Shown one piece after another: positions 196-39,694 of a DNA stretch of 64,000 bases; positions within the stretch are counted from its first letter, which is position 1; every line of letters begins with the position of its first letter. Below the pieces are notes generated by a model that saw only the letters and a program-made list of their open reading frames with translations, searched no databases and was not told where the DNA came from. A program made the position numbers and the translations under genes. This DNA is from a virus (Duplodnaviria > Caudoviricetes). Location: IMG/VR virus record IMGVR_UViG_2687453531_000003, positions 21,299-85,298 of that record, one strand, 5' to 3'.

Positions 196-897
196 TCAGC
201 GCGAGGCGCTTCGGGGGCCTGACGTTGTCTCCAGCCAGAAGCTGAAGTAGCCGCGGGACTGGATCGCGTTCACCGCTTCCTCCACGTTCCACATCGCGTA
301 CCTGGCACCGACTTCGAATTCGTCGATCGAATCTTCGATCCTGCAGGGTGCTTCCTGCAGCCATTCGTACTGACGTGGAAGCGCCTTCGGGTCAGCGTCC
401 CCAGGAATCACCAGAACACGGCCTCGCGCCGTATTGGCTATGTACCGGAGCTTGACCACCTGGTTGCCGTAATAGGTGCGGACGCTGAGCTTCGTGTCCA
501 GGGCGGCAAGGGCCTGTTCAAGCGCTTCCATCTTGGTGTTGTGAAGGAAGTCCACCAGGCGATCACCCTGGGTCTGGGCGATTCCCAGGAGCTTGCACAG
601 GTCAGACTTGCGCATTCCGCGCTTCATCATCTCGTTCCACAGCGCGATCTTCGCCACGGTGACGGCCGGCAGATGCACGACGTGTTCGCCTTCCTCTGGC
701 GGAGTTGCTTCCGGGATCGGCTTGCGCGCATCAACGTAGAGCGACAGGGTCGTCTCGATGGCGTCCAGCGCCTCACGGATCGCGTGCTCGCGGTCGTCAC
801 CGAAGCTGTTCAGCTCCGGCAGGTCTCGGCAGAAAACGGCGACGCCAGGCGCGCTGTCGTCCTGTTCGAATCGGATTGCATAGTCGTACATGGTCAC
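196..897 (-). CDS. hicB: HicB antitoxin with a ~90-aa C-terminal extension
   Basis: N-terminal FCRDLPELNSFGDDREHAIREALDA HicB motif, then an HTH; directly downstream of hicA. Confidence 0.88.
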   Translation of the reverse strand: MTMYDYAIRFEQDDSAPGVAVFCRDLPELNSFGDDREHAIREALDAIETTLSLYVDARKPIPEATPPEEGEHVVHLPAVTVAKIALWNEMMKRGMRKSDLCKLLGIAQTQGDRLVDFLHNTKMEALEQALAALDTKLSVRTYYGNQVVKLRYIANTARGRVLVIPGDADPKALPRQYEWLQEAPCRIEDSIDEFEVGARYAMWNVEEAVNAIQSRGYFSFWLETTSGPRSASR

Positions 898-2232: not shown

Positions 2233-2829
2233 ATGGCGCTGAACAAGAAGCGGCGCCGGTTCGTCGAGGAGTACTTGGTCGACCTCAACGCGACGCAGGC
2301 AGCAATCCGCGCTGACTACAGCGTTAGGCGAGCGGCAGAAATCGGTTACGAGCTGCTCCGTGTACCCGAGGTGGCCGAAGCGATCGCCCAGGCCATGGCG
2401 GAGCGGTCGAAGCGCACTGAGGTCTCAGCCGACTACGTCGTCCGGCGCCTGCGCGAGATCGACGAGATGGACGTACTCGACATCCTCGAGGATGACGGAT
2501 CGTTCCGGTCGATCCGCGACTGGCCCAAGGCCTGGCGCCAGTTCCTGTCCGGCATCGAGATCGCCGAGTTGTTCGAGGGCCGCGGTGACGACCGCCGCAT
2601 CGCTGGCGTGCTCCGCAAGGTCAAGTGGCCGGACAAGCTCCGCAACCTGGAGCTGCTGAGCCGGCACGTCGGCACCGAGTCGGCTGCGCTGGACCTGGAG
2701 CTCAAGCGCCTGGACGTGGCGAAGAAGCGCGCCGAGTTGAAGTTGCTGGAAAACCCCGAGGACGAAGCGCCGCCGACCAGCATCGCGGTGACCATCATCG
2801 ATGCGAGGGTGCGCGATGCCGACGCTTAA
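2233..2829 (+). CDS. terS: Terminase small subunit
   Basis: RFVEEYLVDLNATQAAIRA motif. Confidence 0.93.
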   Translation: MALNKKRRRFVEEYLVDLNATQAAIRADYSVRRAAEIGYELLRVPEVAEAIAQAMAERSKRTEVSADYVVRRLREIDEMDVLDILEDDGSFRSIRDWPKAWRQFLSGIEIAELFEGRGDDRRIAGVLRKVKWPDKLRNLELLSRHVGTESAALDLELKRLDVAKKRAELKLLENPEDEAPPTSIAVTIIDARVRDADA

Positions 2830-4102
2830 CGTGCCTCAGGCAAAGTTCCTGGCGCTTCCGCACAAGTTCTGCGGCTTTGTCGCTGGGTTCGGCTCCGGCA
2901 AGACGTGGGTGGGCTGCTCAGGCCTCGCCCAACACGCTTGGGAGTGGCCGCGCATCAACGCCGGCTACTTCGCGCCGACCTACGCCCAAATCCGCGACAT
3001 CTTCTATCCGACGATGGAGGAGGTGGCCTTCGACTGGGGGCTGCGGACCAAGATCAATCAGGCGAATCACGAGGTTCACCTCTACAGCGGCAGCGCCTAC
3101 CGCACGACGATCATCTGTCGCTCCATGGAGAAGCCGCAGACCATCGTCGGCTTCAAGGTCGGCCGGTCCCTGGTGGACGAGCTCGACGTACTGTCGCTGA
3201 TCAAGGCCCAGCAGGCCTGGCGCAAGATCATCGCGCGGATGCGCTACAAGGTGGACGGCCTGCGCAACCGTGTCGACGTCACCACCACCCCGGAGGGCTT
3301 CAAGTTCGTATTCCAGCAGTTCGTGAAGCAGTTGCGCGAGAAGCCGCACCTGCAGGACCTGTATGGCCTGGTCCAGGCCAGCACCTACGACAACGAGGCG
3401 AACCTTCCGGACGACTACATCGATTCCCTGATGGAGTCGTACCCGCCGCAACTGATCGCGGCGTACCTGCGCGGCCAGTTCGTCAACCTGACGTCGGGCA
3501 CCATCTACACCGCCTACGACCGCACTCTCAACGCCTCGCAGGAGACGGTTCAGCCAGGCGAGCCGATATTCGTGGGTATGGACTTCAACGTCGGCAAGAT
3601 GGCCGCCGTCGTGCATGTGAAGCGCCTGGGCCTGCCGCACGCGGTCGACGAGATCGTCAACGGGTACGACACCCCGGACATGATCCGCCAGATCAAGGAG
3701 CGGTTCTGGCTGTACGCCGACGGCGACTATCGGCCGACCCGCCAGATCAGGATCTACCCCGACGCCTCCGGCGACTCTCGCAAGTCCGTCCGGGCCAGCG
3801 AGACCGATATCGCGCTGCTCAAGCAGGCCGGCTTCGTCGTATCGGCTCCGGCCGCCAACCCGCCGGTCAAGGACCGGATCAACTCCATGAACGCCATGTT
3901 CTGCAACGCCAAGGGCGAGCGACGGTATCGGGTCAATCCCGACCGCTGCCCGACCTACGCCGATGCCCTGGAACAGCAGGTGTGGGGCGCCAACGGTGAG
4001 CCGGACAAGTCCGCCGACATCGATCACCCCAATGACGCGGGTGGCTATTTCATCCACAAGGAATACCCGATCACGAAGTATTCCCTCGCAGGTGTTTCCT
4101 AA
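2816..4102 (+). CDS. terL: Terminase large subunit
   Basis: Walker A GFGSGKT, Walker B LVDE, TTTPEG, nuclease GMDFN and DHPNDA. Confidence 0.95.
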   Translation: MPTLNVPQAKFLALPHKFCGFVAGFGSGKTWVGCSGLAQHAWEWPRINAGYFAPTYAQIRDIFYPTMEEVAFDWGLRTKINQANHEVHLYSGSAYRTTIICRSMEKPQTIVGFKVGRSLVDELDVLSLIKAQQAWRKIIARMRYKVDGLRNRVDVTTTPEGFKFVFQQFVKQLREKPHLQDLYGLVQASTYDNEANLPDDYIDSLMESYPPQLIAAYLRGQFVNLTSGTIYTAYDRTLNASQETVQPGEPIFVGMDFNVGKMAAVVHVKRLGLPHAVDEIVNGYDTPDMIRQIKERFWLYADGDYRPTRQIRIYPDASGDSRKSVRASETDIALLKQAGFVVSAPAANPPVKDRINSMNAMFCNAKGERRYRVNPDRCPTYADALEQQVWGANGEPDKSADIDHPNDAGGYFIHKEYPITKYSLAGVS

Positions 4103-5910
4103 TGGGCGTAAGGCGCTTCCTCACTGACAAGCTGGTCAACTTCGTGGCCAACTTGGGCACGGAGCGAGACAAGGCCGCCGGCAACTTCTACGCGCCGGTC
4201 GTGCTCACCGATGAGCAGTTGCACAACGCGTATCGCGGCGCCTGGTTCCCGCGCAAGGTGGTCGATATCCCGGCGAAGGATGCGACCAGGCGTTGGCGGG
4301 CATGGCAAGCCAGCAAGGCGCAGATCGAGAAGATCGAGGCCGAGGAGAAGCGCCTTCAGGTCCAGGCTCGCACCAAGGACGCTCTGTCCAAGGCGCGGCT
4401 CTGGGGTGGCGCAGCGATCTTTATCGGCACGGGCGACATCGACACCAGCAAGCCGCTGGTGCCTGATCGGGTCAAGGCCGGCGGCATCAAGTATCTGACG
4501 GTGATGAGCCGGCGCGACCTGTCGGCCACTGAGTTGGATCGCGACGTCATGTCACCGAACTACGGCAAGCCCAAGGCCTACCGGCTCGGCGGCAGCGCGA
4601 TCGAGATTCACCCGTCCCGGCTGGTGATCTTCACCGGAGCTGATATCCCCGACCAGGACCTGGCCAGTGGCAATCAGTTCGGCTGGGGAGACTCGGTCCT
4701 GCAGGCCGTGTTCGAGGCCATCCAACAGATCGACAGCACCATGGCCAACGTGGCCAGCCTCATCTTCGAAGCGAAGGTCGACGTGATCCGTATCCCCGAC
4801 TTCATGCAGGGGATGCAGGACCCGAAGTACGAGAAGCTGGTGCTGGAGCGCATGCGTCTGGCGGCCATGGCGAAGGGAATCAATGGCACCCTGATGCTGG
4901 ACAAGGACGAGGAGTACGACAGCAAATCCGCGAACTTCGGCACGCTGCCGGACATCATGGACCGCTTCATGCAAGCGGGCTGCGGCGCTGCCGATATTCC
5001 GGCAACGCGCATGCTCAGCCAGTCACCCGCCGGCATGAACTCCACTGGTGAGGCCGACCTGCGTAACTACTACGACCGCATCCAGTCCAGCCAGGAGTTG
5101 GACATCACGCCGGCCATGTCGGTGCTGGACGAGTGCCTGGTGCGGTCCGCGCTGGGCAGCCGACCGCCGGAGATCCATTACGTCTGGAACAGCCTCTGGC
5201 AGACCACGGCGAAGGAGCGGGCGGACATCGGGAAGATCACCGCCGAGACTATCAAGACCATCGCCGAGACAAGGCTCTTCCCCGAGGACGCGCTCAGCAA
5301 GGCTGCCGAGACCCTGCTGGTCGAGAACAGCGTGATGCCCGGTCTGGAGTCGGCGCTGGAGGAGTTCGGCTCCGAAGTGCCCGAGGGCGAGCAGGACGAG
5401 GAGGGTGGCAACGGATCGTCCAGCCAGGCGCTGAACGACGCGGCACCTCGCACGCTGTACGTCTCGCGCCGGGTGCTGAACGCCGGCGCGATCATTGACT
5501 GGGCTAAGGACCAGGGCTTCGAGACCACGCTCCCGGCCGACGACCTGCACGTCACCATCGCCTACAGCCGGACGCCCGTCGACTGGATGAAGGTCACCCA
5601 GGCCTGGACGGTCAAGCCGAACGGAAACCTGACCTGTTCCGCCGGCGGCCCGCGCCTGGTCGAGCAGTTCGGCAAAGGGGCCGTGGTTCTGCTGTTCAAC
5701 TCCTCTGACCTGACCTGGCGGCACGTCGAAATTCGCGATGCCGGCGCCAGTTGGGACTGGCCGGACTACCAGCCACATATCACATTCACCTACCAGCCCG
5801 GCAGCGTCGACCTTGACCAGGTTGAGCCGTACCGCGGCGTCATCGAACTCGGCCCGGAGGTCTTCGAGGAGATCGACGGGGGCTGGGCGGATCGCCTCGA
5901 CGAGGAATAA
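4102..5910 (+). CDS. Portal protein (DUF1073-type) fused to a C-terminal Acb1-like 2H phosphoesterase
   Basis: Portal motifs (KVVDIPAKDATR, IHPSRL, GEADLRNYYD) after terL; C-terminal ~155 aa with LHVTIAYSR and YQPHITFTY. Confidence 0.88.
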   Translation: MGVRRFLTDKLVNFVANLGTERDKAAGNFYAPVVLTDEQLHNAYRGAWFPRKVVDIPAKDATRRWRAWQASKAQIEKIEAEEKRLQVQARTKDALSKARLWGGAAIFIGTGDIDTSKPLVPDRVKAGGIKYLTVMSRRDLSATELDRDVMSPNYGKPKAYRLGGSAIEIHPSRLVIFTGADIPDQDLASGNQFGWGDSVLQAVFEAIQQIDSTMANVASLIFEAKVDVIRIPDFMQGMQDPKYEKLVLERMRLAAMAKGINGTLMLDKDEEYDSKSANFGTLPDIMDRFMQAGCGAADIPATRMLSQSPAGMNSTGEADLRNYYDRIQSSQELDITPAMSVLDECLVRSALGSRPPEIHYVWNSLWQTTAKERADIGKITAETIKTIAETRLFPEDALSKAAETLLVENSVMPGLESALEEFGSEVPEGEQDEEGGNGSSSQALNDAAPRTLYVSRRVLNAGAIIDWAKDQGFETTLPADDLHVTIAYSRTPVDWMKVTQAWTVKPNGNLTCSAGGPRLVEQFGKGAVVLLFNSSDLTWRHVEIRDAGASWDWPDYQPHITFTYQPGSVDLDQVEPYRGVIELGPEVFEEIDGGWADRLDEE

Positions 5911-5912
5911 CG

Positions 5913-7034
5913 ATGCTTCTTCATGACTCCGTGTCGGTGTCCGGCGTTCGCCGGACCGCTGACGGCTACCTCGTGGCCGATGCCCGGGTAGCGCGCACTG
6001 GCATCCAGGAATACCTGGGTTCCGAGGTCGGCAAGCCCGACATACCCATTGTCCGCGTGTACCGGCCACCGGAATCGGTTTTCGCCGAGGACGCCATGCG
6101 CTCCTACGCCTACCGTCCCATGACCAACGGCCACCACGGCGAGGTCACCGCTGAGAACTGGAAGCAGCTCGCCATCGGCCAGACCGGCTCGGAGGTCCTG
6201 CGAGACGGCGACTTCGTGCGCGTGCCTCTGGTGTTGATGGATGCCGATGCGATCCGCGACTACGAGGCAGGAAAGCGCGAGCTATCCATGGGGCTCGAGG
6301 CAGAGGTCATTTTCGAGGATGGGGTGACCCCCACCGGCGAGACCTACGACGCCCGGCTTGGCCCGATGCGAATGAACCACCTCGCTCTGGTCGATCACGC
6401 CAGGGGCGGCGAGCAACTGCGCATCGGGGATTCGCGCACCCCCGGCGCCAAGAAACCTGCGCAAACAACCCCCACAGGAGGCCATGACATGGCTGATGCA
6501 CTCCGCAAACTCCTGGTCGATGGCCTCACGATCGAGACCACCGAGCAGGGCGCCCAGGTCGTCGAGAAGCTGCAGAAGCAACTCGGCGACGCCGGGGCGA
6601 ACCTCAAGACCATCCAAGACGCCCACGCCACCGCGATGGCAGCGAAAGACGCCGAACTGGCGAAGAAGGACGCCGAAATCGATGGGCTGAAGGCCAAGGT
6701 ACTGAGCGACGCCGACATCGACAAACTGGTGCGTGAGCGCGCCGACCTGATCGCCAGCGCGATGCTGATCGCTGACGGCGACTATGCCGGCAAGTCCGCC
6801 GCCGAGATCCGCAAGGCGGCTGTCGTGGCCAAGCTGGGCGACGCCGCCATCAAGGACAAGCCGGAGGCGTACATCGCCGCCCGATTCGACATCCTGCTCG
6901 AGGATGCCGCCAGTAACGACCCGGTGCGTGTCCATCTGAAGCAACAGGACAGCAAGCCGACGAACCCGGCTGACAACGGTCAGGCGGCCTACGAGGCCCG
7001 TGTTAACGGCGCCTGGAAAGGAGGTGACAAATAA
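5913..7034 (+). CDS. DUF2213 prohead protease/scaffold
   Basis: ARTGIQEY, RELSMG and NHLALVDHARGG motifs, then a coiled-coil scaffold. Confidence 0.85.
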   Translation: MLLHDSVSVSGVRRTADGYLVADARVARTGIQEYLGSEVGKPDIPIVRVYRPPESVFAEDAMRSYAYRPMTNGHHGEVTAENWKQLAIGQTGSEVLRDGDFVRVPLVLMDADAIRDYEAGKRELSMGLEAEVIFEDGVTPTGETYDARLGPMRMNHLALVDHARGGEQLRIGDSRTPGAKKPAQTTPTGGHDMADALRKLLVDGLTIETTEQGAQVVEKLQKQLGDAGANLKTIQDAHATAMAAKDAELAKKDAEIDGLKAKVLSDADIDKLVRERADLIASAMLIADGDYAGKSAAEIRKAAVVAKLGDAAIKDKPEAYIAARFDILLEDAASNDPVRVHLKQQDSKPTNPADNGQAAYEARVNGAWKGGDK

Positions 7035-9068: not shown

Positions 9069-9582
9069 CGCCTACTACGGCACCGTGGCTGGTGCTGATG
9101 CCTACCACCAGGCCCGGGGCAATGCCGCCTGGGCGGCTGCTGCTGAGGCCGACAAGGAAGCAGCGCTGGCCCGGGCATCAGCCTACATCGACGGCCTCGG
9201 CACCCAACAGCCGGTCTCTGAATGCGTGCTGGTCTTTCCTGGCAAGAAAGCCGGAGGGCGAGCCCAAGCACTGCAATGGCCGCGCGTAGGCGCCGTTGAC
9301 CGTGACGGGGAGCCCGTTCCGGCTGATGAGGTGCCGCGGGAGGTCGAGCAGGCCACCTACGAGGCCGCGCTGCGCGAACTGTTGAAGCCCGGCAGCCTGA
9401 ATCCGGACTACGTTGCGACCACCGCGGTGAAACGCGCCAAGGTCGGGCCGCTCGAAACCGAGTTCTTCGGCCCAGCCGAAGGCGACGAGCAGCCCAACAA
9501 GCCCTTCATCGGGGTCATCAACGATCTCTTGGCGCCGATCATGGTGTTGCGGTGCCCGATGCCAGCGGTATTCACGGTATGA
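9061..9582 (+). CDS. Head-tail adaptor (DnaT-like family)
   Basis: YGTVAGADAYH, QALQWPR, VPREVEQATYEAAL. Confidence 0.75.
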   Translation: MADAYYGTVAGADAYHQARGNAAWAAAAEADKEAALARASAYIDGLGTQQPVSECVLVFPGKKAGGRAQALQWPRVGAVDRDGEPVPADEVPREVEQATYEAALRELLKPGSLNPDYVATTAVKRAKVGPLETEFFGPAEGDEQPNKPFIGVINDLLAPIMVLRCPMPAVFTV

Positions 9583-10571
9583 CCGAAGCCGAGATCCTAC
9601 GCGCAATCGAGGGAAAGGAGCCGGCGTTGCAGAGGGCGTACCTGGACCGGGTCAGGTCGGTGACGGATGCCGCTGTCGTGGCTGAGATCGAGCGCTACAT
9701 CAACGAGCAGGATGAGGATTCCATTGTCTCGGCGCTGTCGCTGGGGCTGCTGGCGGTGTTCCTGGAGCAACTGCGGTCCACCTACCTGGCCGGCGCGACC
9801 CTCGAAATCAAGTTTTTCCCGGGACGGCCGGTCCCGGAGTTTGACCCTGTAGGCCCTGGGCCGTCGACCTGGTTATCGGAGCATGCCCGCGTCCTGCAGC
9901 GTGACATCGATGATGCTACGCGCCTGGCTGTCCGCCACACGATCCAGATGGCCGACCTCCTGGGGCGCCCGCCGCGCGCGACAGCACTCGATATCGTCGG
10001 CCGGCGAAGCCCGCAGACCGGGCAGCGAACCGGAGGAATCACCGGACTCTCCGGCAACTACGCCCAGGCAGTGGCCAACGCCCGCGCCCAGTTGCTCAGC
10101 GGAGACCCCGCGCAGATGCGCCAATACCTGACCCGCATTCGCAGGGACCGGCGGTTCGACAGGTTGGTCGAGCGAGCCGTCGAGGCGCGTCGCCCGGTCC
10201 CGTCGGCGGATGTCGATCGCATCGTAGGCCGCTATTCCGAGCGACTGCTGCGGACCCGTGCCGAGCAGATCGCCGCGACTGAGGCACACGACGCCTTCAG
10301 CGCCGGACGGGATCAGGTCTACGAGCAACTCGTCGCCAATGGACTGGAGCGCAGCAGAGTCCTGAAGACCTGGCACAACGTCGGCGACAACCGCGTTCGG
10401 CACACTCATTCGCCGATGCAGGGCCAGCGACAGCAACTCGGTAGTCCGTTCGTGACGGGCGGTGGCGCGCTGCTGATGTTCCCCGGTGACCAGACGCTTG
10501 GGGCCGGCGACAACGAAACCGCCGGCTGCCGGTGCTGGGTCGAGTACGAAATCGGAGGTATCCGTGCGTGA
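9579..10571 (+). CDS. Head morphogenesis protein (Mu gpF/SPP1 gp7-like)
   Basis: KTWHNVGDNRVRHTH and GCRC C-terminal motifs. Confidence 0.8.
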   Translation: MTEAEILRAIEGKEPALQRAYLDRVRSVTDAAVVAEIERYINEQDEDSIVSALSLGLLAVFLEQLRSTYLAGATLEIKFFPGRPVPEFDPVGPGPSTWLSEHARVLQRDIDDATRLAVRHTIQMADLLGRPPRATALDIVGRRSPQTGQRTGGITGLSGNYAQAVANARAQLLSGDPAQMRQYLTRIRRDRRFDRLVERAVEARRPVPSADVDRIVGRYSERLLRTRAEQIAATEAHDAFSAGRDQVYEQLVANGLERSRVLKTWHNVGDNRVRHTHSPMQGQRQQLGSPFVTGGGALLMFPGDQTLGAGDNETAGCRCWVEYEIGGIRA

Positions 10572-21266: not shown

Positions 21267-21290
21267 AACCCCGCCCTGTGCGGGGTTTTT
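21267..21290 (+). terminator. Intrinsic terminator
   Basis: AACCCCGC-cctgt-GCGGGGTT followed by TTT. Confidence 0.75.
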
Positions 21291-21307
21291 GCTTTCTAGG
21301 AGCAGCC

Positions 21308-22987
21308 ATGCCCGTCCGTTACAACACCATGAACCCGGTCGAGCCGAATGGGTCTTCCGACTTCCGTGATCTGTCTGACAACACTGCGAACCTTGACCTT
21401 GCGATGAATGGCCAGGCCCTGACCTGGACGAATCGAATTGGAGGTGAAGAGAAGTCTTGGCGGGGCATTGTGCAGTGGATTGCCGATTGGCTCGCCGCGC
21501 AGGGATTCGAGCCAGGCTTCCTTGAGTATGTCGACGGCTCTCCGCTGATTGTTGATCGCCCGACCCAACTGATCCAGCGCGACGGGAATCTCTACAGCGT
21601 TAAGCGGCCAGCAGATTTCCCGGTCAGCCTCAACGGGAACTGGGCCACCGACCAGACCCTGCTGGTTGCCCAGGTCGACCGCTCGCTGCGTCAGCAGTTG
21701 AGAGCTCCGGGTGGCGCCGGAATGATCGGTTACGATCCGGCGGAAACGTACCCATCAGATACAATCGGCTACGAGGTAAATACCCTCGGGGCGCTCAAGG
21801 TTGTCGTAGTTACGAATTACGGCGCCACCGGCAACGGGACGACTGATGACACGGCGGCGATTCAGGCTGCCATTGCAGCAGCAGGGCCATATTCAGATGT
21901 CGTATTCCCGTCTGGAACTTACCTCATCACCTCTACGCTCACCTCGTTGACTGGTCAGCGCTGGCTTGGTAGAGGCGGCCAACGAGGCACTACGATCAAG
22001 AAGGGTGCCAACATCGACATGGTTGTTGTGGGCACCCTTTCCACCATTCTTGATATCAACCTCGAAGGCGTTGGTTCTACCTATACAGGAAAGGGGTTCA
22101 GGATCGTCTCTGGATTTAGTCAAACGATCACAAGATGCCGTGCGGTAAATATGGGCGGTAACCCCATGTGGTTCGACGTTGATGCAGGTGGCGGGGCTAA
22201 CGTGACATGTTTTGAAGGCTATCCAGTTGATCCAGATGCCTATGCAGGAATCCAGATTGCTGGTGATACTGGTGCTCATCCTAGATTTTTCCGAGGGATT
22301 TGGCTAAGTGGCGCTAACTTCGCGCTCGGTCCAGGCGGCGGTAATGGTGGGAGTCTGTCTGAGTTCTATATCAGAACTTTCGTATTTGATCCGACATCTA
22401 CGCTTTTCCATATTTCAAATGGAAGGTGCTCTACTCCATCTACAACTATTAGGGGTTTTGACCATTCCATTGATGGGGTTGCATTTCCAGGGCCTTTAAC
22501 CCTTGACTCTGCTCAAGGAATTAACTTCGGACCATCCTGCGGAATAAATAACAACTTCACCGAAGTCAACTCGCAATACAACGCTGTCTATATCCAGCGA
22601 AGGACCTACACTCCAACGTGGAAGCAGTCTACTGCTACACCATCGATAGGAAATGGCACTCTCACCGGGAATTTCGTCAGGTCTGGTCATATGTGCCACC
22701 TCCAGCTTGAGCTTATTGCTGGGTCCACCACGACCTTTGGAGATAGTGCCTCAGCTTATAGGTTTTCGTTACCCTTCCCAGGGCATCTGTCGTTTAATCA
22801 ACGTGGCTTCCCTGTAAGAATCTATGATTCGAGTGCAGGGGCTGATTTCACTGGGTGGGCGAGCATTGCGGCCGGTTCTTCAGAGTTTACGATCTCTTTC
22901 GGGGGACAGCAGGTTAGGGCGTCTTCGCCCATGACCTGGGCAAGCGGAGACACCTTGCAGTGCTCATTTTCGTACATGGTTAGGTAG
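21308..22987 (+). CDS. Tailspike/depolymerase (pectate-lyase-like beta-helix)
   Basis: N-terminal anchor YNTMNPVEPNGSSDFRDLSDN; NYGATGNGTTDDTAAIQAAI...VVFPSGTYLI. Confidence 0.85.
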   Translation: MPVRYNTMNPVEPNGSSDFRDLSDNTANLDLAMNGQALTWTNRIGGEEKSWRGIVQWIADWLAAQGFEPGFLEYVDGSPLIVDRPTQLIQRDGNLYSVKRPADFPVSLNGNWATDQTLLVAQVDRSLRQQLRAPGGAGMIGYDPAETYPSDTIGYEVNTLGALKVVVVTNYGATGNGTTDDTAAIQAAIAAAGPYSDVVFPSGTYLITSTLTSLTGQRWLGRGGQRGTTIKKGANIDMVVVGTLSTILDINLEGVGSTYTGKGFRIVSGFSQTITRCRAVNMGGNPMWFDVDAGGGANVTCFEGYPVDPDAYAGIQIAGDTGAHPRFFRGIWLSGANFALGPGGGNGGSLSEFYIRTFVFDPTSTLFHISNGRCSTPSTTIRGFDHSIDGVAFPGPLTLDSAQGINFGPSCGINNNFTEVNSQYNAVYIQRRTYTPTWKQSTATPSIGNGTLTGNFVRSGHMCHLQLELIAGSTTTFGDSASAYRFSLPFPGHLSFNQRGFPVRIYDSSAGADFTGWASIAAGSSEFTISFGGQQVRASSPMTWASGDTLQCSFSYMVR

Positions 22988-23051
22988 GTTCGAGTCGCCA
23001 CAGGGATGTGGCTATCGGCTACAATCGGCGCCTGTCAATCTGGAGGACGCC

Positions 23052-24308
23052 ATGTACGCGATGCTAACCGGGGTAACCCTGCTCATTTTTTCAGTGGTTG
23101 CAAGGCTTCTAGCGCGTAGCGCCATACACCCCTCGGTCGCTATGCCAGTCACCTGGGGGTTAGGCCTTCTCGGAGTCAGCCTAGCATCTATGATAGGTTT
23201 CTATCCTGTCGAGTCCGACGCTCTGCTTATTTTCCTCGCAGGTGTCCTTTCGTTTTCACTCTCGTCCGCATTTTTCTCTTTCATCTACAATTCATATACT
23301 CCTCCATATAGCTACAATGTTCTTTTCGATAGAGATCTGCGCGCTAAATCTCTAGTTTTTTTCTTCTGTGTAGCACACCTGTTTTTTCTCACAGTAATCT
23401 ACAGAGATTTGTCTTCTATTGCTCCAACTCTGCGCGAAGCGGCATATATGGTTCGTGCGCAGTCAGTATCAGGTGAGCCACTCCTCAGTTCTTTGTCTCT
23501 AAATTATCTTCAGCTTGGTCAAACAGTAATACCTCTTGTGGTATTGCTTTATTTGCGCGGGAAATGCGGGGCTATAGGCATGCTGTCTGTTTCTGCTCCA
23601 TGGATGGCTGTCATACTTCTGGCAAGCGGTAGATCATCTCTTATGCAGATGCTTGTCGGGTTGTTCTTTATTTATGTTCTGGTAAAGGGTCGTCCATCCA
23701 TCAAGAGCATTCTCGTGATAGGTGCGGCAATGTTCTTGGTAATTGCTGTTGGTGCAGTTGCAACGTCTAAGATCCAGTTTCACGAAGGTGATGGAATCTC
23801 TACCTTATTCGTTGAGCTTTACCGTCACGTTGCTGGGTATGCTTTGCAGGGCCCTGTTTTATTTGATAGGTACTATCAGGGGCTGATTCAGGTTGAACCT
23901 CATTGGTCGCCTTTTAACGGTCTTTGCAGTATGGGTTATATATTGGGCTTGTGTGATAAGCCTATTCAGCATCTAGATTTTTACGCTTATGCTCCAGGCG
24001 AGCTTGGAAACGTATACTCAGTATTCTTCTCTATGTACCCTCACTATGGTGTTTTAGGTGTGGTTTTCTTTATGTCTGTTTATGGCATGGTTTGCTCGTA
24101 TGCATACTGTAAAGCCAAGAAGGGTAGTCTGTACTTCACAATTCTCTCCTCGTACTTCTTTTCTGCAATCGTGTTTTCCCTGTTTAGTGACCAGATATCC
24201 ACCTCATGGTGGTTCTACGTCAAAATGACGATCATTCTGGGAGTCCTGTGCTTCGTGTTTAAGCGTGACAGGATGTTTGTGATACGCCTTCCGCAGAAAG
24301 CCAACTGA
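23052..24308 (+). CDS. wzy: O-antigen polymerase
   Basis: 418 aa, about 10-11 TM segments, SGRSSL and GNVYSVF...YG motifs, low GC; recalled similarity to P. aeruginosa O6 Wzy. Confidence 0.85.
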   Translation: MYAMLTGVTLLIFSVVARLLARSAIHPSVAMPVTWGLGLLGVSLASMIGFYPVESDALLIFLAGVLSFSLSSAFFSFIYNSYTPPYSYNVLFDRDLRAKSLVFFFCVAHLFFLTVIYRDLSSIAPTLREAAYMVRAQSVSGEPLLSSLSLNYLQLGQTVIPLVVLLYLRGKCGAIGMLSVSAPWMAVILLASGRSSLMQMLVGLFFIYVLVKGRPSIKSILVIGAAMFLVIAVGAVATSKIQFHEGDGISTLFVELYRHVAGYALQGPVLFDRYYQGLIQVEPHWSPFNGLCSMGYILGLCDKPIQHLDFYAYAPGELGNVYSVFFSMYPHYGVLGVVFFMSVYGMVCSYAYCKAKKGSLYFTILSSYFFSAIVFSLFSDQISTSWWFYVKMTIILGVLCFVFKRDRMFVIRLPQKAN

Positions 24309-28268: not shown

Positions 28269-29456
28269 TCAGGAAAGTTTCAGCGCCTGGTTCAGCAGAC
28301 CTACGATGTCGGGGCCGTCCTTGCTGATCCACTTGGCGTAATGCTTGAAGATCATCGCCGTCGAGGTGTGCCCCATCTGGTCCGCGATCCATTCGGGAGT
28401 GGCGATGCCGCTGCTGAGCATCTGGCTGGCGAAGGTGTGACGGCACTGATTGGGACCACGCGAGCGGACGCCCGCATTCCTGAGGTGGCCATGCCACCAG
28501 CCGTTGCGCAGCGTATCCGACGTGGAGTACGCCGCCCCGCTAGCACTGTTGTGGAACACGAAGCGTACCCGTTGAGCCTTTCTGGTCCGGTTGTCGCGGT
28601 CTATCACCTCGATCTGTACGGGCGGAAGGCGTCTGGTTAGTTTGGCCTGCTGCTGCAGTGCGCGCAGCGCCGGGGCCAGTAGCTGGACCTTCCTCGTCGA
28701 TCGGCGAGTCTTGGTGACCTTGTACTGGCTGCGTACACGGGCGCGGCGGAAAACCACGGTCCCCGTGTCCAAATCGACATCTTCCCAGGCCAGAGCTATG
28801 GCCTCGCTGACGCGGGGGCCGCTCCAGATCATGAATTCCGCCAGGTTCAGCTCACCGATGCGCGCGGTTTCGGTACCGAGGATGAGGTCGATTTCCTCTC
28901 GAGTGAATGGGTCTGGGTCATCCGCATCCGGGAGAGTGATCACGATGCCGTCTGTTGGGTCGTGCGCGGTCCGGTTCCGAGTTCGATACAGCCGGAAGAT
29001 CTGCCGCAGGTTGCTGACGATCTCTCGCACCGTCTTGTTGTGCAGCTTGGGCATGAGCGTGTTCTGCACCCAGTCTTGAATATCCAGGTGGTCGATGCTG
29101 TCGGCCTGGCTGTCACCCCAGCGAGGTCGGATGTGGGTTTCCACGCGGCTGGTGTAGCCGCGGAAGCCGCTGGCGGCGATCTGGTTGCGTTTGATATCGA
29201 GCCAGAGGTCGATGTAATGGCCGAGGGTGTTGCTTTTCACCCGGGGTGAGTCCGGGAAGTGTCGGCTGTAGTTGAAGACTCCTTGCTTGATCTCGTAGTT
29301 GATGATGCCGGCCAGCCGTTCGGCATTGGCTATATTCTCGGGCGTTGCGTCCCCTGGTATGGACTCCCTACACAGCTCGCCCTGGTAGCGGAAGTAGATC
29401 CTGATCCGGTTTCCGCGTACCTCGACTCCGTCTGCCATCTGGTTCCCCTGATCCAC
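28269..29456 (-). CDS. int: Tyrosine integrase with Arm DNA-binding domain
   Basis: SGPRVSE (R), TKT (K), CRHTFAS, QMGH, HY catalytic motifs. Confidence 0.95.
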   Translation of the reverse strand: MDQGNQMADGVEVRGNRIRIYFRYQGELCRESIPGDATPENIANAERLAGIINYEIKQGVFNYSRHFPDSPRVKSNTLGHYIDLWLDIKRNQIAASGFRGYTSRVETHIRPRWGDSQADSIDHLDIQDWVQNTLMPKLHNKTVREIVSNLRQIFRLYRTRNRTAHDPTDGIVITLPDADDPDPFTREEIDLILGTETARIGELNLAEFMIWSGPRVSEAIALAWEDVDLDTGTVVFRRARVRSQYKVTKTRRSTRKVQLLAPALRALQQQAKLTRRLPPVQIEVIDRDNRTRKAQRVRFVFHNSASGAAYSTSDTLRNGWWHGHLRNAGVRSRGPNQCRHTFASQMLSSGIATPEWIADQMGHTSTAMIFKHYAKWISKDGPDIVGLLNQALKLS

Positions 29457-29483
29457 ACCAAACGTTCAGGCTATCAAGTCTCC

Positions 29484-29508
29484 AAAAAAATAGGCCCGCA
29501 AGCGGGCC
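29484..29508 (-). terminator. Intrinsic terminator ending the early operon
   Basis: Minus strand GGCCCGCTTGCGGGCC-TATTTTTTT. Confidence 0.75.
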
Positions 29509-29540
29509 AAGAAGATTCGTTGCCTGTTTCTGGTAGCTCT

Positions 29541-29648
29541 CTACCATTCAGTCAACACCATGAAGTACAGGATGAAGACAACCAAAGTCGCGAGAGAGAA
29601 GTTCAACAGGCTGCGAGGGCTGTCTAGCATTTTGAGTAGTTCGTGCAT
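29541..29648 (-). CDS. 35-aa membrane peptide
   Basis: AAGGGG RBS; MHELLKMLDSPRSLLNFSLATLVVFILYFMVLTEW*. Confidence 0.55.
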   Translation of the reverse strand: MHELLKMLDSPRSLLNFSLATLVVFILYFMVLTEW

Positions 29649-29658
29649 GAATATCCCC

Positions 29659-30891
29659 TTAACAGAACAGCAGCGGCTGTACCGCGCCGTCGGCGAAGAC
29701 TTTGTCGAGAGGGGTGATGGCGATTGGCTCGTCGCCGTCCCAGCCATCCGGCCAGGTTCCGGCGGCGATCAGCTCGCGGATGCGGGCCTCTTCCTCGGCG
29801 TTGATCAGGTCGATGTGAGGGCGACCGAGGGGGGCGGCTGCGGCGTTGCATTCGGCCTGGATGGCCAGCACGCGCTCCAGGCCCATCAAGCGGGACTCCA
29901 GCAGGATCGGTCCCATACGCTGGGGGTTCGCCGCGATGCTGCCGTCCTTCAGCCGCTCGATGCCGGCCTTGCGTAGACGATGCTGGGGTTCGCGCAACTC
30001 GCGCCACAGCGGCTTGATGCGCTTGAGCGGCGCCAGGTACTGCCAGTACGGAACCAGCAGGATCGTGTCGAGCGCCTTGTCTTCATCAGTCAGCGGGCAA
30101 CTGGTGCAACCGGTGCGCGCGTTGATTTCCTCGGCCTCGTCGCCGCCGTAGGCGTCGGCGATCATGGTGGTAGACCAGTCGCCGAATTCGGGCAGGGGGG
30201 CCCAGTGCTTCAGCCATTCCCAGACATGACAGACCCGCCAGTGCAGAAGCGGTGCGAGCGTGGCGATGCGTCCCTTGATGCCCTTTGCCTCGGGTAGAAC
30301 CTTTTGATACCAGCCCTGGCCGCACTCGGCTCCATCCTTACCGCATGACATCTCGATGCGTTTGTCGCGTATTGCGCTCTCGCCCTGGCGTACGCCAGTG
30401 ATCATCAACACGTTGCCGTCGAGCGCGGCCAGGCGTTGCTCGAGGGCGGTGACCATCGGGTCGACCTTGATCTGCCGGGTGCACCAGCGAAGCGTGTTGT
30501 TGTTCGGCGGTGGCACGCCCCTGCCGAGGATGTAGACCATGAAGCGCTTGTCGAGCGGGGCCATGACCACTTCGACGTGGACGCCACGCTCTTCCAGTTC
30601 GTCCATGAGGTGACGCGCAGAGTTCGCCAGCGGCAGCAATTCCAGACGGGTATCGGCATAGAACACGGTCAAGGTTTTCGGCGCTTTCACCTTCCTGGCG
30701 TCGATCAGATAGAGCACTAGAGTGACAGTGGCGCTACTGTCCTTGCCGCCCGACCAGGCAATGGCCCAATGCTCATGATCGGCGCCGTAGGCCTGTAGGG
30801 ATTGGATTGTCAGTTCAATGCTCTCGGTCATCTGCAGGCGCTGGGCGCCGGCGGCGAAGATGTCGTTTTGACGCGGGGTAAAGGTCTTCAC
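29659..30891 (-). CDS. PAPS-reductase/DndC-like PP-loop protein
   Basis: SGGKDS, FYADTRLE, RWCTRQIKVDP, GVRQGES, RTGCTSCP; GTG start overlaps the upstream stop. Confidence 0.85.
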   Translation of the reverse strand: MKTFTPRQNDIFAAGAQRLQMTESIELTIQSLQAYGADHEHWAIAWSGGKDSSATVTLVLYLIDARKVKAPKTLTVFYADTRLELLPLANSARHLMDELEERGVHVEVVMAPLDKRFMVYILGRGVPPPNNNTLRWCTRQIKVDPMVTALEQRLAALDGNVLMITGVRQGESAIRDKRIEMSCGKDGAECGQGWYQKVLPEAKGIKGRIATLAPLLHWRVCHVWEWLKHWAPLPEFGDWSTTMIADAYGGDEAEEINARTGCTSCPLTDEDKALDTILLVPYWQYLAPLKRIKPLWRELREPQHRLRKAGIERLKDGSIAANPQRMGPILLESRLMGLERVLAIQAECNAAAAPLGRPHIDLINAEEEARIRELIAAGTWPDGWDGDEPIAITPLDKVFADGAVQPLLFC

Positions 30892-31172
30892 TGATGCGTC
30901 TCCGTCTGGGCAGAGCTCCGCTCCAAAAGGGCGATGCCTCCCTGCGCTTTCCTGGCCGCCAGGTTGGCCATGTAGCTGGCCCACTCGACAGCCTTGGCCT
31001 GTTGGCGAATTCGGCTGCAGCGTTGGTGTTTGCCGGTGGAACGTGCGTTGCCGCAGATATCACAGATGCTCGGAAGGTCCAGCCGCTTGCTGGCCATCGC
31101 TGGGCGAGTGCGAGCCGCCGACGTGGTTGTGCTAGCCTTGGCGCCGCCGCCTTGAGGCTGATTCGCTTGCAT
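30888..31172 (-). CDS. Small Zn-binding hypothetical protein
   Basis: CDICGNARSTGKHQRCS; strong RBS. Confidence 0.7.
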   Translation of the reverse strand: MQANQPQGGGAKASTTTSAARTRPAMASKRLDLPSICDICGNARSTGKHQRCSRIRQQAKAVEWASYMANLAARKAQGGIALLERSSAQTETHQ

Positions 31173-31231
31173 GGTGTCTCTCCTTTGGGGTGGTTGGCGC
31201 CAGGGAGTTGCCGCTCCCTGGCGCCTCTTCT

Positions 31232-31438
31232 TCAACGCCGCGCGGGGTGCTCGCGCAGTTCCTGACAGCTGATGCAGCACTCACAACCCGGGGCGGCCTG
31301 GCGGCGAGCCTCGGGGATTCGCTCGCCGCAGTCTTCGCACCAGAGGGCGCTGGGTGCCAGGCGGGTGTTTGTCCGCTGGGCCAGGGCGGCCTGGACCATG
31401 TTCTCGGCCCGTTCGTTGGCCTGGTCGATCACATCCAC
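31232..31438 (-). CDS. TraR/DksA C4 zinc-finger protein
   Basis: CEDCGERIPEARR...CISCQ. Confidence 0.9.
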   Translation of the reverse strand: MDVIDQANERAENMVQAALAQRTNTRLAPSALWCEDCGERIPEARRQAAPGCECCISCQELREHPARR

Positions 31439-31449
31439 AGTCAGCCTCC

Positions 31450-31803
31450 TTATGCTGCAAGCTTCGCTGCGGCCCAGCGCTTGCTCAGGTCCTGCCAGAT
31501 CGCATCGCCGTTTTCGAAGTACTCATGCACTTCCTGTTTCGGGGCGTAGTCCATGCGCAGCACGGACAGGCACGCATCGAACAGCGCTGGGTCGAGGCGG
31601 CGCAGCTCGGTGAGGTCGAAGCGGTGGGCTTGGCCGTTGTACAGGCCGAGCAGGAACCGACCGATCACGCCGCTCTGGCCGCTGTCGCGCTGGGCGATCG
31701 GCAGCAGGCGTTTCAGCGCGGTGAGGCCGGCTACCTCGTTCTCCTGCTGCCTGGCCTGGAAGTCGTGGATCAACCGCAGATAGTCGTGGGGGAGGGGTTG
31801 CAT
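31450..31803 (-). CDS. Conserved hypothetical phage protein
   Basis: DSGQS...FLLGLYNG..FDLTELRRLD; strong RBS. Confidence 0.75.
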   Translation of the reverse strand: MQPLPHDYLRLIHDFQARQQENEVAGLTALKRLLPIAQRDSGQSGVIGRFLLGLYNGQAHRFDLTELRRLDPALFDACLSVLRMDYAPKQEVHEYFENGDAIWQDLSKRWAAAKLAA

Positions 31804-31862
31804 GGTGTCTCTCCTATCGGTTTGTGGTCCCGGCGTTGCCGCGCCGGGTCAAGGGTCGTCGG

Positions 31863-32135
31863 TCAGTTCGCTACAACGGCGTGGATGGTGAGGTCGCTGG
31901 GGATATCGCCTTTGAGGTGCCGCAGGTGCTTGATCTGTTGCTCACTGCATTCGTCGATGCAGATCACCTTGGCGCCGTGGCTGATGCGGTGGCGCACCAA
32001 CAGCTCTAGGTCGAACGGTGTGTAGAGACTGCCGCTGATGATCTGGTGCTCTTCCTGACCGGCCTTACGTGCGGCCTGGCGCAGGCGAATGGTCTTGCCG
32101 GTCATCCGTGCGCCGCGTTCTACGTTCAGTTGCAT
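31863..32135 (-). CDS. 90-aa minimal P-loop-like protein
   Basis: GARMTGKT (Walker A-like), VICIDE (Walker B-like); strong RBS. Confidence 0.7.
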   Translation of the reverse strand: MQLNVERGARMTGKTIRLRQAARKAGQEEHQIISGSLYTPFDLELLVRHRISHGAKVICIDECSEQQIKHLRHLKGDIPSDLTIHAVVAN

Positions 32136-32179
32136 GGTGTCTCTCCTTTGGGGTTGCAGTTCCGGCGTTGCCGCGCCGG

Positions 32180-34900: not shown

Positions 34901-35130
34901 GCGCGCCCCCGAATCTGCTTGCGCAGCTCGCGGATGGTCCGGCAGATGCCGGCGATGTGTGGGCGGTCCTCGAGGATGCGCTTGCCGCGTAGCCCCTGCG
35001 GCGTATAGCGGTAGCGGTCGTCGTACCAGCACTCGGCCATGGCGGCTTCGTACTGGCTGACCAGCCAGAGCAGGTACTTCTCAGCCTGGTTCTGGTCGAC
35101 TTCGACGGTGATTGAAATGTGGCCGCTCAT
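34897..35130 (-). CDS. Hypothetical early protein
   Basis: 77 aa, GAGGT RBS, ATGA overlap with the replication gene. Confidence 0.7.
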   Translation of the reverse strand: MSGHISITVEVDQNQAEKYLLWLVSQYEAAMAECWYDDRYRYTPQGLRGKRILEDRPHIAGICRTIRELRKQIRGRA

Positions 35131-37646: not shown

Positions 37647-37711
37647 CTAGACATGAATGGGCAAGACACTCTAGCTTTAATAGGTAGAGTTTTCAATGGA
37701 GTGTGAAATCA

Positions 37712-39694
37712 ATGAATGATGAAGTGCAGGAGCAGCCGCTCAAGCTAGAAATTGATTTAAATGTTTTGAATCATTTAGGTATTAATCTCTATAGCAATAC
37801 TCCGGCCGTGCTTACAGAGATTGTTGCAAATGCTTGGGATGCAGATGCTACAAGCGTTGATGTGGTTATTGATAGTGGATCAAATACTATTACCATTACC
37901 GATGATGGGATCGGTATGGATTACTCTGATTTGAAGACGAAATTTCTTACTGTAGGCTACCCCCGAAGAGATCATGGCGAGACCCGGACACCAAGTGGCC
38001 GTCAGTGCATGGGGCGAAAAGGTATCGGAAAGTTGGCAATGTTTTCTTTGGCAAAGAACATAGTTGTTGTAACTAGGAAGAAGGGGGGTAGTCCTTATGG
38101 ATTGACTTTCTCTGTTGAAGAGCTTAAGGAAAAAATAAAAGATAAGAAGGAATATGTTCCCGAAAGGATTTCTGACTTTTCCTCATATATTATGCCTGTA
38201 AGTGGGACGATTATTAAGCTTATTGATCTTCAGCAGCGGGTCAATAAGACGGAGTCTTTTCTTCGTCGTCGGATTGCTCGTCGTTTCAGTGTTATTGGTG
38301 CGGCTAATAATTTTAATGTTCGGGTGAATAAAGTGCCGATAGGTCTGTCTGATAGAGAGTTCTATCCAGACATTCAGTTTCTTTGGACTTTTGGTGATGA
38401 AAGGAAAGCAGAGGTCGCTAAGGCGGCGTGTAGAAACTTGAAAGATAAATACCATCGACATTTTGAGGGTGTGACATCCGGTGGGATGGCGGTAGATGGG
38501 TTTATTGGAAGTGTGGTTAAGCCTGAGCAGTTAAAGAAGGATGGTGATAATAATAATACCATAACTTTATTGGCGAATGGGCGACTTTTTGAGGAGGACT
38601 TGCAGAAGCGTATTGATGACTCGAAGGTCTTCAATAGCTATCTGGTAGGCGAGTTGGAGGTCAATGATCTTGATTTGAATGATCGTCCAGATATAGCAGT
38701 TAGTAGCCGCCAAGGCGTGCAGGAAGATGATCCACGTTACCAGGACTTTGTTGGCTACATAAAGTCTAGGCTAAGCGATATCGCTGCGAATTGGGATACT
38801 TGGCGGCGGGAGGTTGGTGGTGCCCAGATGGTCGCTGAATTTCCCAAACTTCAAGATTGGCTTGATACTTTGTCGCCGAGGCTCAGGTCGAAAGCGCAGC
38901 AGTTAATAAATAAGATCAACACAATTCGTTTCAATGGAAGTGAAGAGTATCAGAAGATTCAAAGGCGTGAAGTGGTTAAGGCACAGGTTTTAGCTTTCGA
39001 AAAGTTGCGGCTTCAAGATAATCTGGATGCTATTGCCAATATTGATGTTGAGCGCAATGTGTCTGAGTTTCGGGAAATCATGATAACTGTGGAGGATCTT
39101 GAAGCGTCGCTCCATAGAGATATAATTTCTCAGCGCCTGGCTGTTATAAAAAAGCTTGATGATGACCAGCGTAATAAAGTTCGCGAGGTGGTTGTGCAGG
39201 AGCATATTTACAACCACCTATGGCTGGTAGACTCTAAGTGGGAGTACAAGGAAAGTGCCACTGATTGGGAGCTTCGATTGACAGAGCACCTGCGAGCAGC
39301 TTGCCCTGACACAACAGAAGGGGCTCGACTCGATATCGGCTACAGGACTACAGCTGGGCGATATATCGTGATAGAGCTAAAAAAACCAGGCTTGAGCGTG
39401 ACGGCAAGCTCGCTACTTGATCAAGGTGAGAAATATGTCATAGCTTTGGGTGAATATTTCGAAAAAAATCCAGAGTCATCGCCGATTCAAGGGCAGATCC
39501 CATCTATTGATGTTGTGTTTATTGTTGATAAAGCTCCTCGTTTACATGATCTACAGAAGGGGAGGCTTAGGAACATGAATGGTCGTATAACTACTTATCG
39601 TGATCTTGTGGTTCAAGCCAATTTAGCCTACGAAGATTACCTTCAGGCTTCACGTAAGGTGGGGCGTATCAGGGAGATCATTGAAAATATCTAA
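37712..39694 (+). CDS. GHKL-ATPase plus PD-(D/E)xK nuclease, probable restriction endonuclease (HgiDII-like)
   Basis: EIVANAWDADA, DDGIGM, GRKGIGKLA, GT; C-terminal RLDI...VIELKKP; low GC. Confidence 0.82.
   Translation: MNDEVQEQPLKLEIDLNVLNHLGINLYSNTPAVLTEIVANAWDADATSVDVVIDSGSNTITITDDGIGMDYSDLKTKFLTVGYPRRDHGETRTPSGRQCMGRKGIGKLAMFSLAKNIVVVTRKKGGSPYGLTFSVEELKEKIKDKKEYVPERISDFSSYIMPVSGTIIKLIDLQQRVNKTESFLRRRIARRFSVIGAANNFNVRVNKVPIGLSDREFYPDIQFLWTFGDERKAEVAKAACRNLKDKYHRHFEGVTSGGMAVDGFIGSVVKPEQLKKDGDNNNTITLLANGRLFEEDLQKRIDDSKVFNSYLVGELEVNDLDLNDRPDIAVSSRQGVQEDDPRYQDFVGYIKSRLSDIAANWDTWRREVGGAQMVAEFPKLQDWLDTLSPRLRSKAQQLINKINTIRFNGSEEYQKIQRREVVKAQVLAFEKLRLQDNLDAIANIDVERNVSEFREIMITVEDLEASLHRDIISQRLAVIKKLDDDQRNKVREVVVQEHIYNHLWLVDSKWEYKESATDWELRLTEHLRAACPDTTEGARLDIGYRTTAGRYIVIELKKPGLSVTASSLLDQGEKYVIALGEYFEKNPESSPIQGQIPSIDVVFIVDKAPRLHDLQKGRLRNMNGRITTYRDLVVQANLAYEDYLQASRKVGRIREIIENI

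Follow-up and report, generated by a model that had tools for sequence, protein, structure and literature searches.

A portal protein that carries a conserved, Acb1-family domain at its C-terminus is encoded in a 64,000-nucleotide (nt) stretch of tailed-phage DNA, hereafter the window, which covers positions 21,299 to 85,298 of the provirus record IMGVR_UViG_2687453531_000003 in IMG/VR (85,298 b). The Acb1 enzymes of phages T4 and FBB1 cleave cyclic di- and trinucleotides 3' of adenosine in a metal-independent reaction (PMC9117128), and thereby counter CBASS, an antiphage system that signals through cyclic oligonucleotides. The protein would be the portal of a temperate Pseudomonas-type siphophage, in which a flexible acidic linker of 24 residues is predicted to join the portal body to a complete Acb1-type 2H phosphodiesterase. 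The portal-Acb1 fusion is already known, both as an architecture and as a hypothesis. What is added here is its optional nature, the purifying selection acting on it, its occurrence on three portal families, the extensions of the chain in some relatives, its absence from the coordinates of the Pam3 portal and a junction of 2 nt with a protease-annotated gene.

The gene is a single open reading frame (ORF) of 602 amino acids (aa) on the plus strand, starting with ATG and ending with TAA at 5908-5910. The Phage_portal_3 and Acb1 profile scores lie far beyond chance. Phage_portal_3 reached 353.7 bits against a cut-off of 33.8, and Acb1 (PF23474) reached 153.1 bits against a cut-off of 27, aligned over positions 1-143 of the 144 in its profile, whereas the generic 2H families 2_5_RNA_ligase2 (17.1 bits) and LigT_PEase (14.7 bits) remained below their cut-offs. 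Furthermore, phrog_146, named 'portal protein', covers aa 5-596 with its positions 21-585 of 587; the alignment extends over nearly the whole protein, so the two-domain form is built into the phrog_146 family. A sequence-only reading of the window had described the gene as a portal joined to an Acb1-like 2H phosphoesterase, and this identity is upheld by the Pfam profile, the aligned residues and the fold match. The peptides and the acidic linker quoted in that reading are all found in the translation, the histidine codons stand where it had put them (5548, CAC, His483; 5776, CAT, His559), and both HxT motifs are intact, with Thr485 encoded at 5554 (ACC) and Thr561 at 5782 (ACA).

The fold of the domain was modelled separately from 21 aligned sequences, with a mean predicted local distance difference test (pLDDT) score of 85.6; for the C-terminal lid the score is 71 in the penultimate block of the model and 43 in the final one. 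FBB1 Acb1 (7t26) is the top solved match of this model (Foldseek E 1.3e-9, template modelling score 0.81), and the VIA comparison with FBB1 Acb1 gave a Z of 15.8 and a root-mean-square deviation (rmsd) of 2.1 A, with 131 of 137 residues aligned. The next fold match is a phosphodiesterase of Burkholderia phage BCSR5 that was deposited as Acb1 (Z 14.1), and LigT-type enzymes rank after the Acb1 structures, at a Z of about 10.9. T4 gp57B and FBB1 Acb1 (PDB 7T26/7T27) thus share with the present domain the PF23474 family, the 2H fold, the catalytic tetrad and the tyrosine, aromatic, glutamate and lid-tryptophan contacts, although their identity to it is only 28-33%.

Residues were compared by alignment to T4 gp57B, with numbering as in Hobbs et al. 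2022. In place of the T4 catalytic tetrad H44/T46/H113/T115 the window protein has H483/T485/H559/T561. Y453, W553 and W595 take the positions of the stacking residues Y12, F107 and W147, and E589 takes that of E141, which contacts adenine N6; the lid, which includes W595, forms the protein's free C-terminal end. In T4 Acb1, E141 makes the adenine contact and W147 stacks as part of the lid (PMC9117128). In total, eight of the nine functional residues named in T4 are kept. Among the 150 best representative relatives, the HxT/S...HxT/S pattern is kept in 145 and a tetrad residue is changed in five. The ratio of nonsynonymous to synonymous substitution (dN/dS) of the Acb1 part was 0.04-0.27 in 21 of 22 comparisons with dS below 0.7, similar to that of the portal body, the exception being the relative L023 (0.47 at a dS of 0.019). 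The Acb1 part is therefore under purifying selection; judged from its sequence, the domain belongs to the Acb1 family, is conserved and is very likely to be active.

The genetic setting differs from that of the characterized enzymes. Acb1 of T4 and FBB1 is a free protein of ~150 aa among early or nucleotide-metabolism genes, whereas here it is the C-terminal domain of a late structural protein. In phage T4 (L164, 271-1023), acb1 (57B) is a free gene with 57A upstream of it and ipI, which encodes an internal head protein, directly downstream. In Edwardsiella phage vB_EpM_ZHS (L003), a gene at 2116-2715 named 'prohead protease' matches phrog_755 (Acb1/57B; E 2e-18), lies just upstream of the portal genes and has both HxT motifs intact when aligned; it seems to be a mislabelled Acb1-like gene that stands free beside a portal.

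The linker between the two domains is GSEVPEGEQDEEGGNGSSSQALND, with 7 acidic residues, 11 Gly/Ser/Asn and no basic residue among its 24. The pLDDT is below 50 over residues 423-454 of the full-length model, so that the linker stretch is predicted to be disordered, and the region is variable across an alignment of 22 homologues. The portal-Acb1 ATG shares one base with the stop codon of the large terminase gene. The ATG of the downstream DUF2213 gene (5913) follows 2 nt past the portal-Acb1 TAA, with GAGGA 6 nt 5' of it. A separate start for the Acb1 part was sought, and no in-frame ATG is present within the linker DNA. An in-frame GTG at 5377 (Val426), preceded 12 nt earlier by GGAGGAG, was considered for internal initiation, but this position is Leu in the consensus of the 22 homologues and such a start is not proposed. 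The IMG/VR locus set holds 80 close relatives of the Acb1 domain, of which four are cut by a contig end; since one open frame of 584-1093 aa is kept in all 76 uncut loci, the portal-Acb1 ORF is not an accident of assembly. In Synechococcus phage Yong-M3-232 (L002), portal and Acb1 part are two overlapping ORFs. A programmed frameshift that would give two portal forms was ruled out in this phage by a direct duplication of ~127 nt at the portal-Acb1 junction (1480-1720), seen in alignment with Ssp-JY40, which has one frame; there is no slippery site, and the duplication reflects either a recent mutation or an artefact of assembly.

The portal half has a close structural relative in cyanophage Pam3. 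The full-length AlphaFold model has a mean pLDDT of 64.6 with a good portal body, and its match list is filled by solved portals. The best of these is Pam3 portal gp3 (8hds_A; Foldseek E 4.6e-35, 50% identity), to which the VIA comparison gave a Z of 28.8 and an rmsd of 7.5 over 402 aligned residues, model residues 24..430 lying on chain residues 26..436. By analogy with the Pam3 gp3 dodecamer, as described in the available text of that paper (PMC9942802), the protein would form a dodecameric portal ring at one capsid vertex. Pam3 gp3 has the same two-domain architecture and is 45% identical over aa 9-599, and the order of terminases, portal and then head genes is the same. It differs in belonging to a myophage of a cyanobacterium and in having a MuF-like minor capsid gene between the portal and DUF2213 genes. 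The Pam3 portal counts 621 residues in the sequence record and 442 in the coordinates, and is aligned here up to residue 436. Its Acb1 part matches by sequence at E 1.3e-33, yet 8hds does not figure among the fold hits obtained with the Acb1-domain model, which places the Acb1 part outside the deposited Pam3 coordinates. The terms 'phosphoesterase', 'Acb1' and 'ligase' have no occurrence in the main text of the Pam3 paper (PMC9942802). In the available text of the same paper, the order of the Pam3 portal is given as barrel, followed by crown and wing, then stem and lastly clip, 'from inside to outside', and by this analogy the Acb1 domain would hang from the inward-facing end of the portal.

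Such fusions are widespread. At least 80% of the protein is covered at one place in 33 of 50,697 phage records. The carriers include the Pseudomonas phages phiPSA1, MR15, psageB2, psageK9 and PSA-2T (62% identity), as well as a series of Rhizobium phages, Synechococcus phages, Pam3, Aminobacter phage Erebus and Sinorhizobium phage HMSP1-Susan. Taken by itself, the domain has matches in 1,488 phage records, for the most part T4-like phages that carry the free gene at ~28-31% identity. In protein databases, aa 440-602 are matched by at least 1,682 protein clusters of 331-1,054 aa (E 1e-5 or better), and both Pfam domains are present in all 120 among the matches listed. The best listed match is a P. 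aeruginosa cluster (P0002; 552 members), 96% identical over aa 440-602; such Pseudomonas entries are likewise 602 aa long with the same two Pfam domains and show no substantive difference from the present protein. Among 1.84 billion, the domain profile retrieved 2,819 representatives with an E of at most 1e-3, and 1,037 with an E of at most 1e-30. A relative is encoded in 87 of 88 pattern matches in IMG/VR, and a profile-guided scan of IMG/VR for distant forms returned the same 80 closest loci with no added diversity. Among 401 Pseudomonas species genomes, an Acb1 match was found in eight, always in open frames of 600-645 aa. The earlier caveat that DUF1073-Acb1 fusions are annotated elsewhere was thus right but understated, as thousands of database proteins share the architecture. 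Source records name them 'anti-CBASS protein Acb1 family protein', 'DUF1073 domain-containing protein' or 'phage portal protein'.

The Acb1 domain is optional. The portals of Stenotrophomonas phage CUB19, Acinetobacter phage Silvergun and Rhizobium phage RHph_N28_2 are 436-481 aa long, 53-55% identical to the window portal and set in the same gene order, and they lack the domain; no Acb1 match exists anywhere in these three genomes. In phiPSA1 and Pam3, the Acb1 match is found in the portal frame only. Identities of the two halves suggest that the domain moves independently of the portal body: the portal and Acb1 parts are 71% and 87% identical in L029, 93% and 84% in L030, and 25-26% and 58-62% in L069, L070 and L074. 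The 150 relatives were sorted by phmmer against the window's own proteins, which gave 114 with portal body and Acb1, 4 with Acb1 and DUF2213, and 32 with Acb1 only, and Pfam scans were made of 9 and 10 chosen proteins; the scans left out 22 'Acb1 only' rows, mostly of 181-536 aa and probably fragments. Of the 10 further relatives, three have PF04860, three PF06381, two Portal_Mu and one Acb1 alone, while the tenth (P0221) combines ChaB, Acb1, an XkdF-type prohead protease and an ADP-ribosyltransferase, with no portal. A single Acb1 clade is found joined to portals from three Pfam families (PF06381, PF04860 and Portal_Mu). In a FastTree phylogeny of 151 domains, with five labelled non-PF06381 rows, three partner changes are needed, two of them forced by well-supported branches. 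All nine long relatives scanned have portal and Acb1; behind Acb1, two carry Zeta_toxin (P0159, P0218) and two an ADP-ribosyltransferase (P0177, P0204), one has a pyridine-nucleotide oxidoreductase between the portal and Acb1 domains (P0153), and extra sequence with no Pfam match is found in four.

The enzyme most likely acts as T4 and FBB1 Acb1 do, by metal-independent cleavage of the 3'-5' bond next to adenosine. Judged by homology, its substrates would be cyclic di- and trinucleotides such as 3'3'-cyclic GMP-AMP (3'3'-cGAMP) and cyclic triadenylate (cA3), whose cleavage would remove the signal for CBASS effectors. All nine further Acb1 homologues tested by Hobbs et al. cleaved both compounds, according to the available text (PMC9117128). 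As the enzyme lies within the portal polypeptide, it would be made with the late head genes, and for that reason would be present when CBASS is triggered; its translation is probably coupled to that of the terminase gene upstream and the head-maturation protease gene downstream. The available part of one report describes the activation of CD-NTases through cleavage by prohead proteases (10.64898/2026.03.04.709575). Late action in the producing cell is, by a slight preference, taken to be the main selected function. Because the C-terminal end of the portal faces the head interior, twelve copies should enter the interior of the procapsid, and by analogy with Pam3 it is rather probable that twelve Acb1 domains are built into each particle there. 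The sequence-only reading had likewise supposed that fusion to the 12-mer portal times counter-defence to head assembly and may load the enzyme into virions. This is a reasonable proposal that fits the operon and domain-partner findings, and it amounts to an existing hypothesis, since packaging and injection had been proposed in print by Iyer et al. in 2017 and 2022.

Several observations weigh against this reading. The base-stacking W74 of T4, the one named residue with no aromatic equivalent here, aligns with a Glu, with a Phe two positions on, in a loop whose alignment is uncertain. In the mature Pam3 particle, the Acb1 part could be flexible, averaged out or cut off. The Acb1 part of the full-length model has a pLDDT of 28-58, too low a confidence for its docking on the portal to be interpreted, and docking was set aside. 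The DUF2213 homologue is named 'head scaffold protein' in the Pam3 record and no solved structure matches the window DUF2213 protein by sequence, for which reasons its protease activity is an annotation only. Within the literature searched, which was covered in part, no enzyme assay, virion proteomics or genetics on a portal-fused Acb1 was found. As to CBASS in hosts, no SMODS cyclase match is present in the 85,298-b provirus record, and one of five genomes carrying related prophages has a SMODS match. Among the 401 Pseudomonas species genomes, SMODS was found in 30, including one flagged as unpublished (G375), and in none of the eight with the fusion, where ~0.6 would be expected; this overlap gives no support from CBASS and is too small to count against it.

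Delivery, rather than late action in the producing cell, may be the point of the fusion. With the portal C-terminus as a capsid-targeting hook, the Acb1 domains would be packed inside the head, released by the head maturation protease through a cut at the exposed linker, and injected together with the DNA, so that cyclic-nucleotide signalling in the next cell is blunted before phage gene expression, in keeping with the 'polyvalent protein' logic of Iyer et al. 2017. This explanation is tentative and, on the present evidence, on the unlikely side, and the same holds for its central step, the release of the copies at the linker and their entry into the next cell. The domain company in relatives favours release and injection. 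The domain is recurrently joined to proteins of the procapsid interior, on three portal Pfam families and in one XkdF-type protease fusion, with the three partner changes required by the tree; nevertheless, portals tolerate C-terminal extensions, and recurrent fusion could arise with no selection for delivery. Behind Acb1, relatives carry an ADP-ribosyltransferase or zeta-toxin, effector domains of a kind which Iyer et al., in the available text, tie to injected head proteins such as T4 Alt (PMC5512222), and delivery was proposed for 2H-portal fusions in the accessible part of PMC9503650. The linker is long, acidic and predicted to be disordered, and the portal-Acb1 gene adjoins the protease-annotated gene. 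The missing Acb1 part of the Pam3 virion portal is what a cut-off domain would give, but a flexible tether under 12-fold averaging explains the missing density equally well. Moreover, the activity of standalone T4 Acb1 appears only from ~15 min into infection, which means that the family works without delivery, and CBASS is triggered late, when an early dose of 12 molecules may find little substrate.

Alternatively, the domain may be a 2H enzyme with another substrate, acting in the healing of RNA 2',3'-cyclic phosphates, on 2'-5' oligoadenylate-like signals or as an RNase, which is improbable. Standalone relatives (phrog_755) are filed as 'RNA ligase' in PHROGs, the fold matches that rank next are LigT and other enzymes of the 2H type (Z about 9-11), T4 W74 is not conserved, and an RNase role was raised as an option for portal- and MuF-fused 2H domains by Iyer et al. 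2017 in the available text (PMC5512222). However, LigT-type profiles reach 15-17 bits where the Acb1 profile reaches 153, the Glu that contacts adenine is kept together with the Trp of the lid and two more stacking aromatics, the nine of nine further Acb1 homologues mentioned above accepted 3'3'-cGAMP and cA3 in the available text of PMC9117128, and no RNA ligase gene is associated with the Acb1 domain in the window. It is very improbable that the domain is now enzymatically irrelevant and serves head assembly or DNA retention, for instance as a plug or spacer above the portal crown, a place occupied in other phages by portal barrels and ejection-protein stacks, given that the five relatives with a changed tetrad stand against 145 with the full tetrad, that the substrate-contact residues are kept, and that close relatives assemble with portals lacking the domain.

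The portal-Acb1 architecture has precedents in print. Domains of the 2H type fused to portal or MuF were described by Iyer et al. 2017 (PMC5512222, available text), and in a later paper such fusions were read as a sign that the proteins are packaged into the head and injected (Iyer et al. 2022, PMC9503650, available text). In the accessible parts of these papers, the 'polyvalent proteins' have the same architecture, and head packaging, injection and the degradation of SMODS/CBASS and CRISPR signals had already been proposed; they differ in being comparative-genomic proposals made before or apart from Acb1 biochemistry. The window protein has an effector domain fused to a head-internal anchor, the portal, in a terminase-portal phage, and compared with other 'polyvalent proteins' it is a minimal two-domain form that lacks further effector domains. 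In Hobbs et al. 2022 (PMC9117128), the words 'portal' and 'fused' have no occurrence. T7 gp8 offers another likeness, being described in a review (PMC13728456) as a late portal that also counters a host nucleotide-alarm pathway, RelA/SpoT; there the portal body itself is said to bind the host enzymes, whereas here an enzymatic domain is appended. The protease class switches CBASS on in other phages, and the enzyme gene ends 2 nt before the protease-annotated gene; selection may have maintained this order as one of 'antidote before trigger', an idea not found in print.

The portal-Acb1 gene belongs to a standard late operon, the features of which are collected in Table 1. No additional effector domain is attached to the MuF-like protein of the window, even though MuF is known, besides the portal, as an anchor of 2H domains. 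Within the small terminase ORF (2233-2829), ARAGORN called an 88-nt tRNA-Arg(CCG) at 2475-2562 (+), which may be a false call. Shortly upstream of the terminase genes lie a HicA toxin at 937-1119 (-; Pfam E 6e-12) and, beside it, a HicB-like/HTH antitoxin candidate at 196-897 (-) with sub-threshold matches only.

Table 1. Features of the portal-Acb1 gene and of the surrounding late genes, in window coordinates.
Feature	Position	Strand	Basis
Whole portal-Acb1 ORF	4102..5910	+	Portal with C-terminal Acb1 domain; Pfam, phrog_146
Portal body, Pfam Phage_portal_3 (formerly DUF1073), aa 39-385	4216..5256	+	E 1.1e-105
Acidic Gly/Ser-rich linker, aa 423-446	5368..5439	+	Composition, low pLDDT
Acb1-family 2H phosphoesterase domain (by homology), aa 450-597	5449..5892	+	PF23474, E 5.4e-45
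First HxT motif, His483-Val-Thr485	5548..5556	+	Aligned to T4 Acb1 H44/T46
Second HxT motif, His559-Ile-Thr561	5776..5784	+	Aligned to T4 Acb1 H113/T115
C-terminal lid region with Glu589 and Trp595	5866..5886	+	Aligned to T4 Acb1 E141 and W147
Next gene: DUF2213 protein, annotated head maturation protease/scaffold	5913..7034	+	PF09979 E 2.5e-47; phrog_530 E 1.8e-108
Previous gene: large terminase subunit	2801..4102	+	Terminase_6N E 5.9e-30, Terminase_6C E 9.9e-8
Small terminase	starts 2233		
Cement protein	starts 7034		
Major capsid protein	starts 7499		
Adaptor	starts 9061		
MuF-like head morphogenesis protein	9552-10571	+	phrog_3517, E 8e-124
Tail tube	starts 11811		
Tape measure	starts 13873		
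gpJ-like tip protein	starts 18494		

Further along the window, in the region 21278-24308, a pectate-lyase-like protein (21278-22987), probably a tail spike, precedes a 418-aa ORF that has no Pfam or PADLOC match; between 22 and 24 kb the guanine-plus-cytosine (GC) content falls to 0.48. A tyrosine integrase (28269-29456, -) comes immediately behind the genes for the tail and host recognition, followed by a DndC/PAPS-reductase-like protein (29659-30984, -) and, beyond it, a Toprim primase-like protein of 950 aa (32180-35032, -). The region 28269-35032 could represent either another integrated element next to the prophage or the prophage's other arm. A low-GC island at 37703-41139 (0.45-0.56 against ~0.64 elsewhere) carries a type II restriction-modification cassette, composed of a HATPase-type restriction enzyme (37703-39694; PADLOC REase_II, E 5e-77), a Vsr nicking endonuclease (39681-40124) and a C5 cytosine methyltransferase (40078-41139, -).

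As a sequence finding, the fusion is ordinary: it is widespread, NCBI, UniRef and Pfam all have names for it, and its probable meaning was first published in 2017. Product names give only 'Acb1 family protein' or 'portal protein' and so mask the other half, and such half-names may distort tallies of the anti-defence genes and the portals found in Pseudomonas prophages. The cultured carriers, phiPSA1 and its relatives, several Rhizobium phages and Pam3, are a ready experimental system, in which it can be asked whether anti-signalling enzymes travel as virion cargo or act only late in the producing cell. A more speculative and rather doubtful view is that the portal C-terminus serves as a general cargo hook, with twelve Acb1 domains packed above the crown, cut loose at the linker by the neighbouring protease and leaving with the DNA. 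If this were true, the phage would arrive already armed against cyclic-oligonucleotide immunity, and the same hook would have been reused for ADP-ribosyltransferase and zeta-toxin cargo on three portal families.

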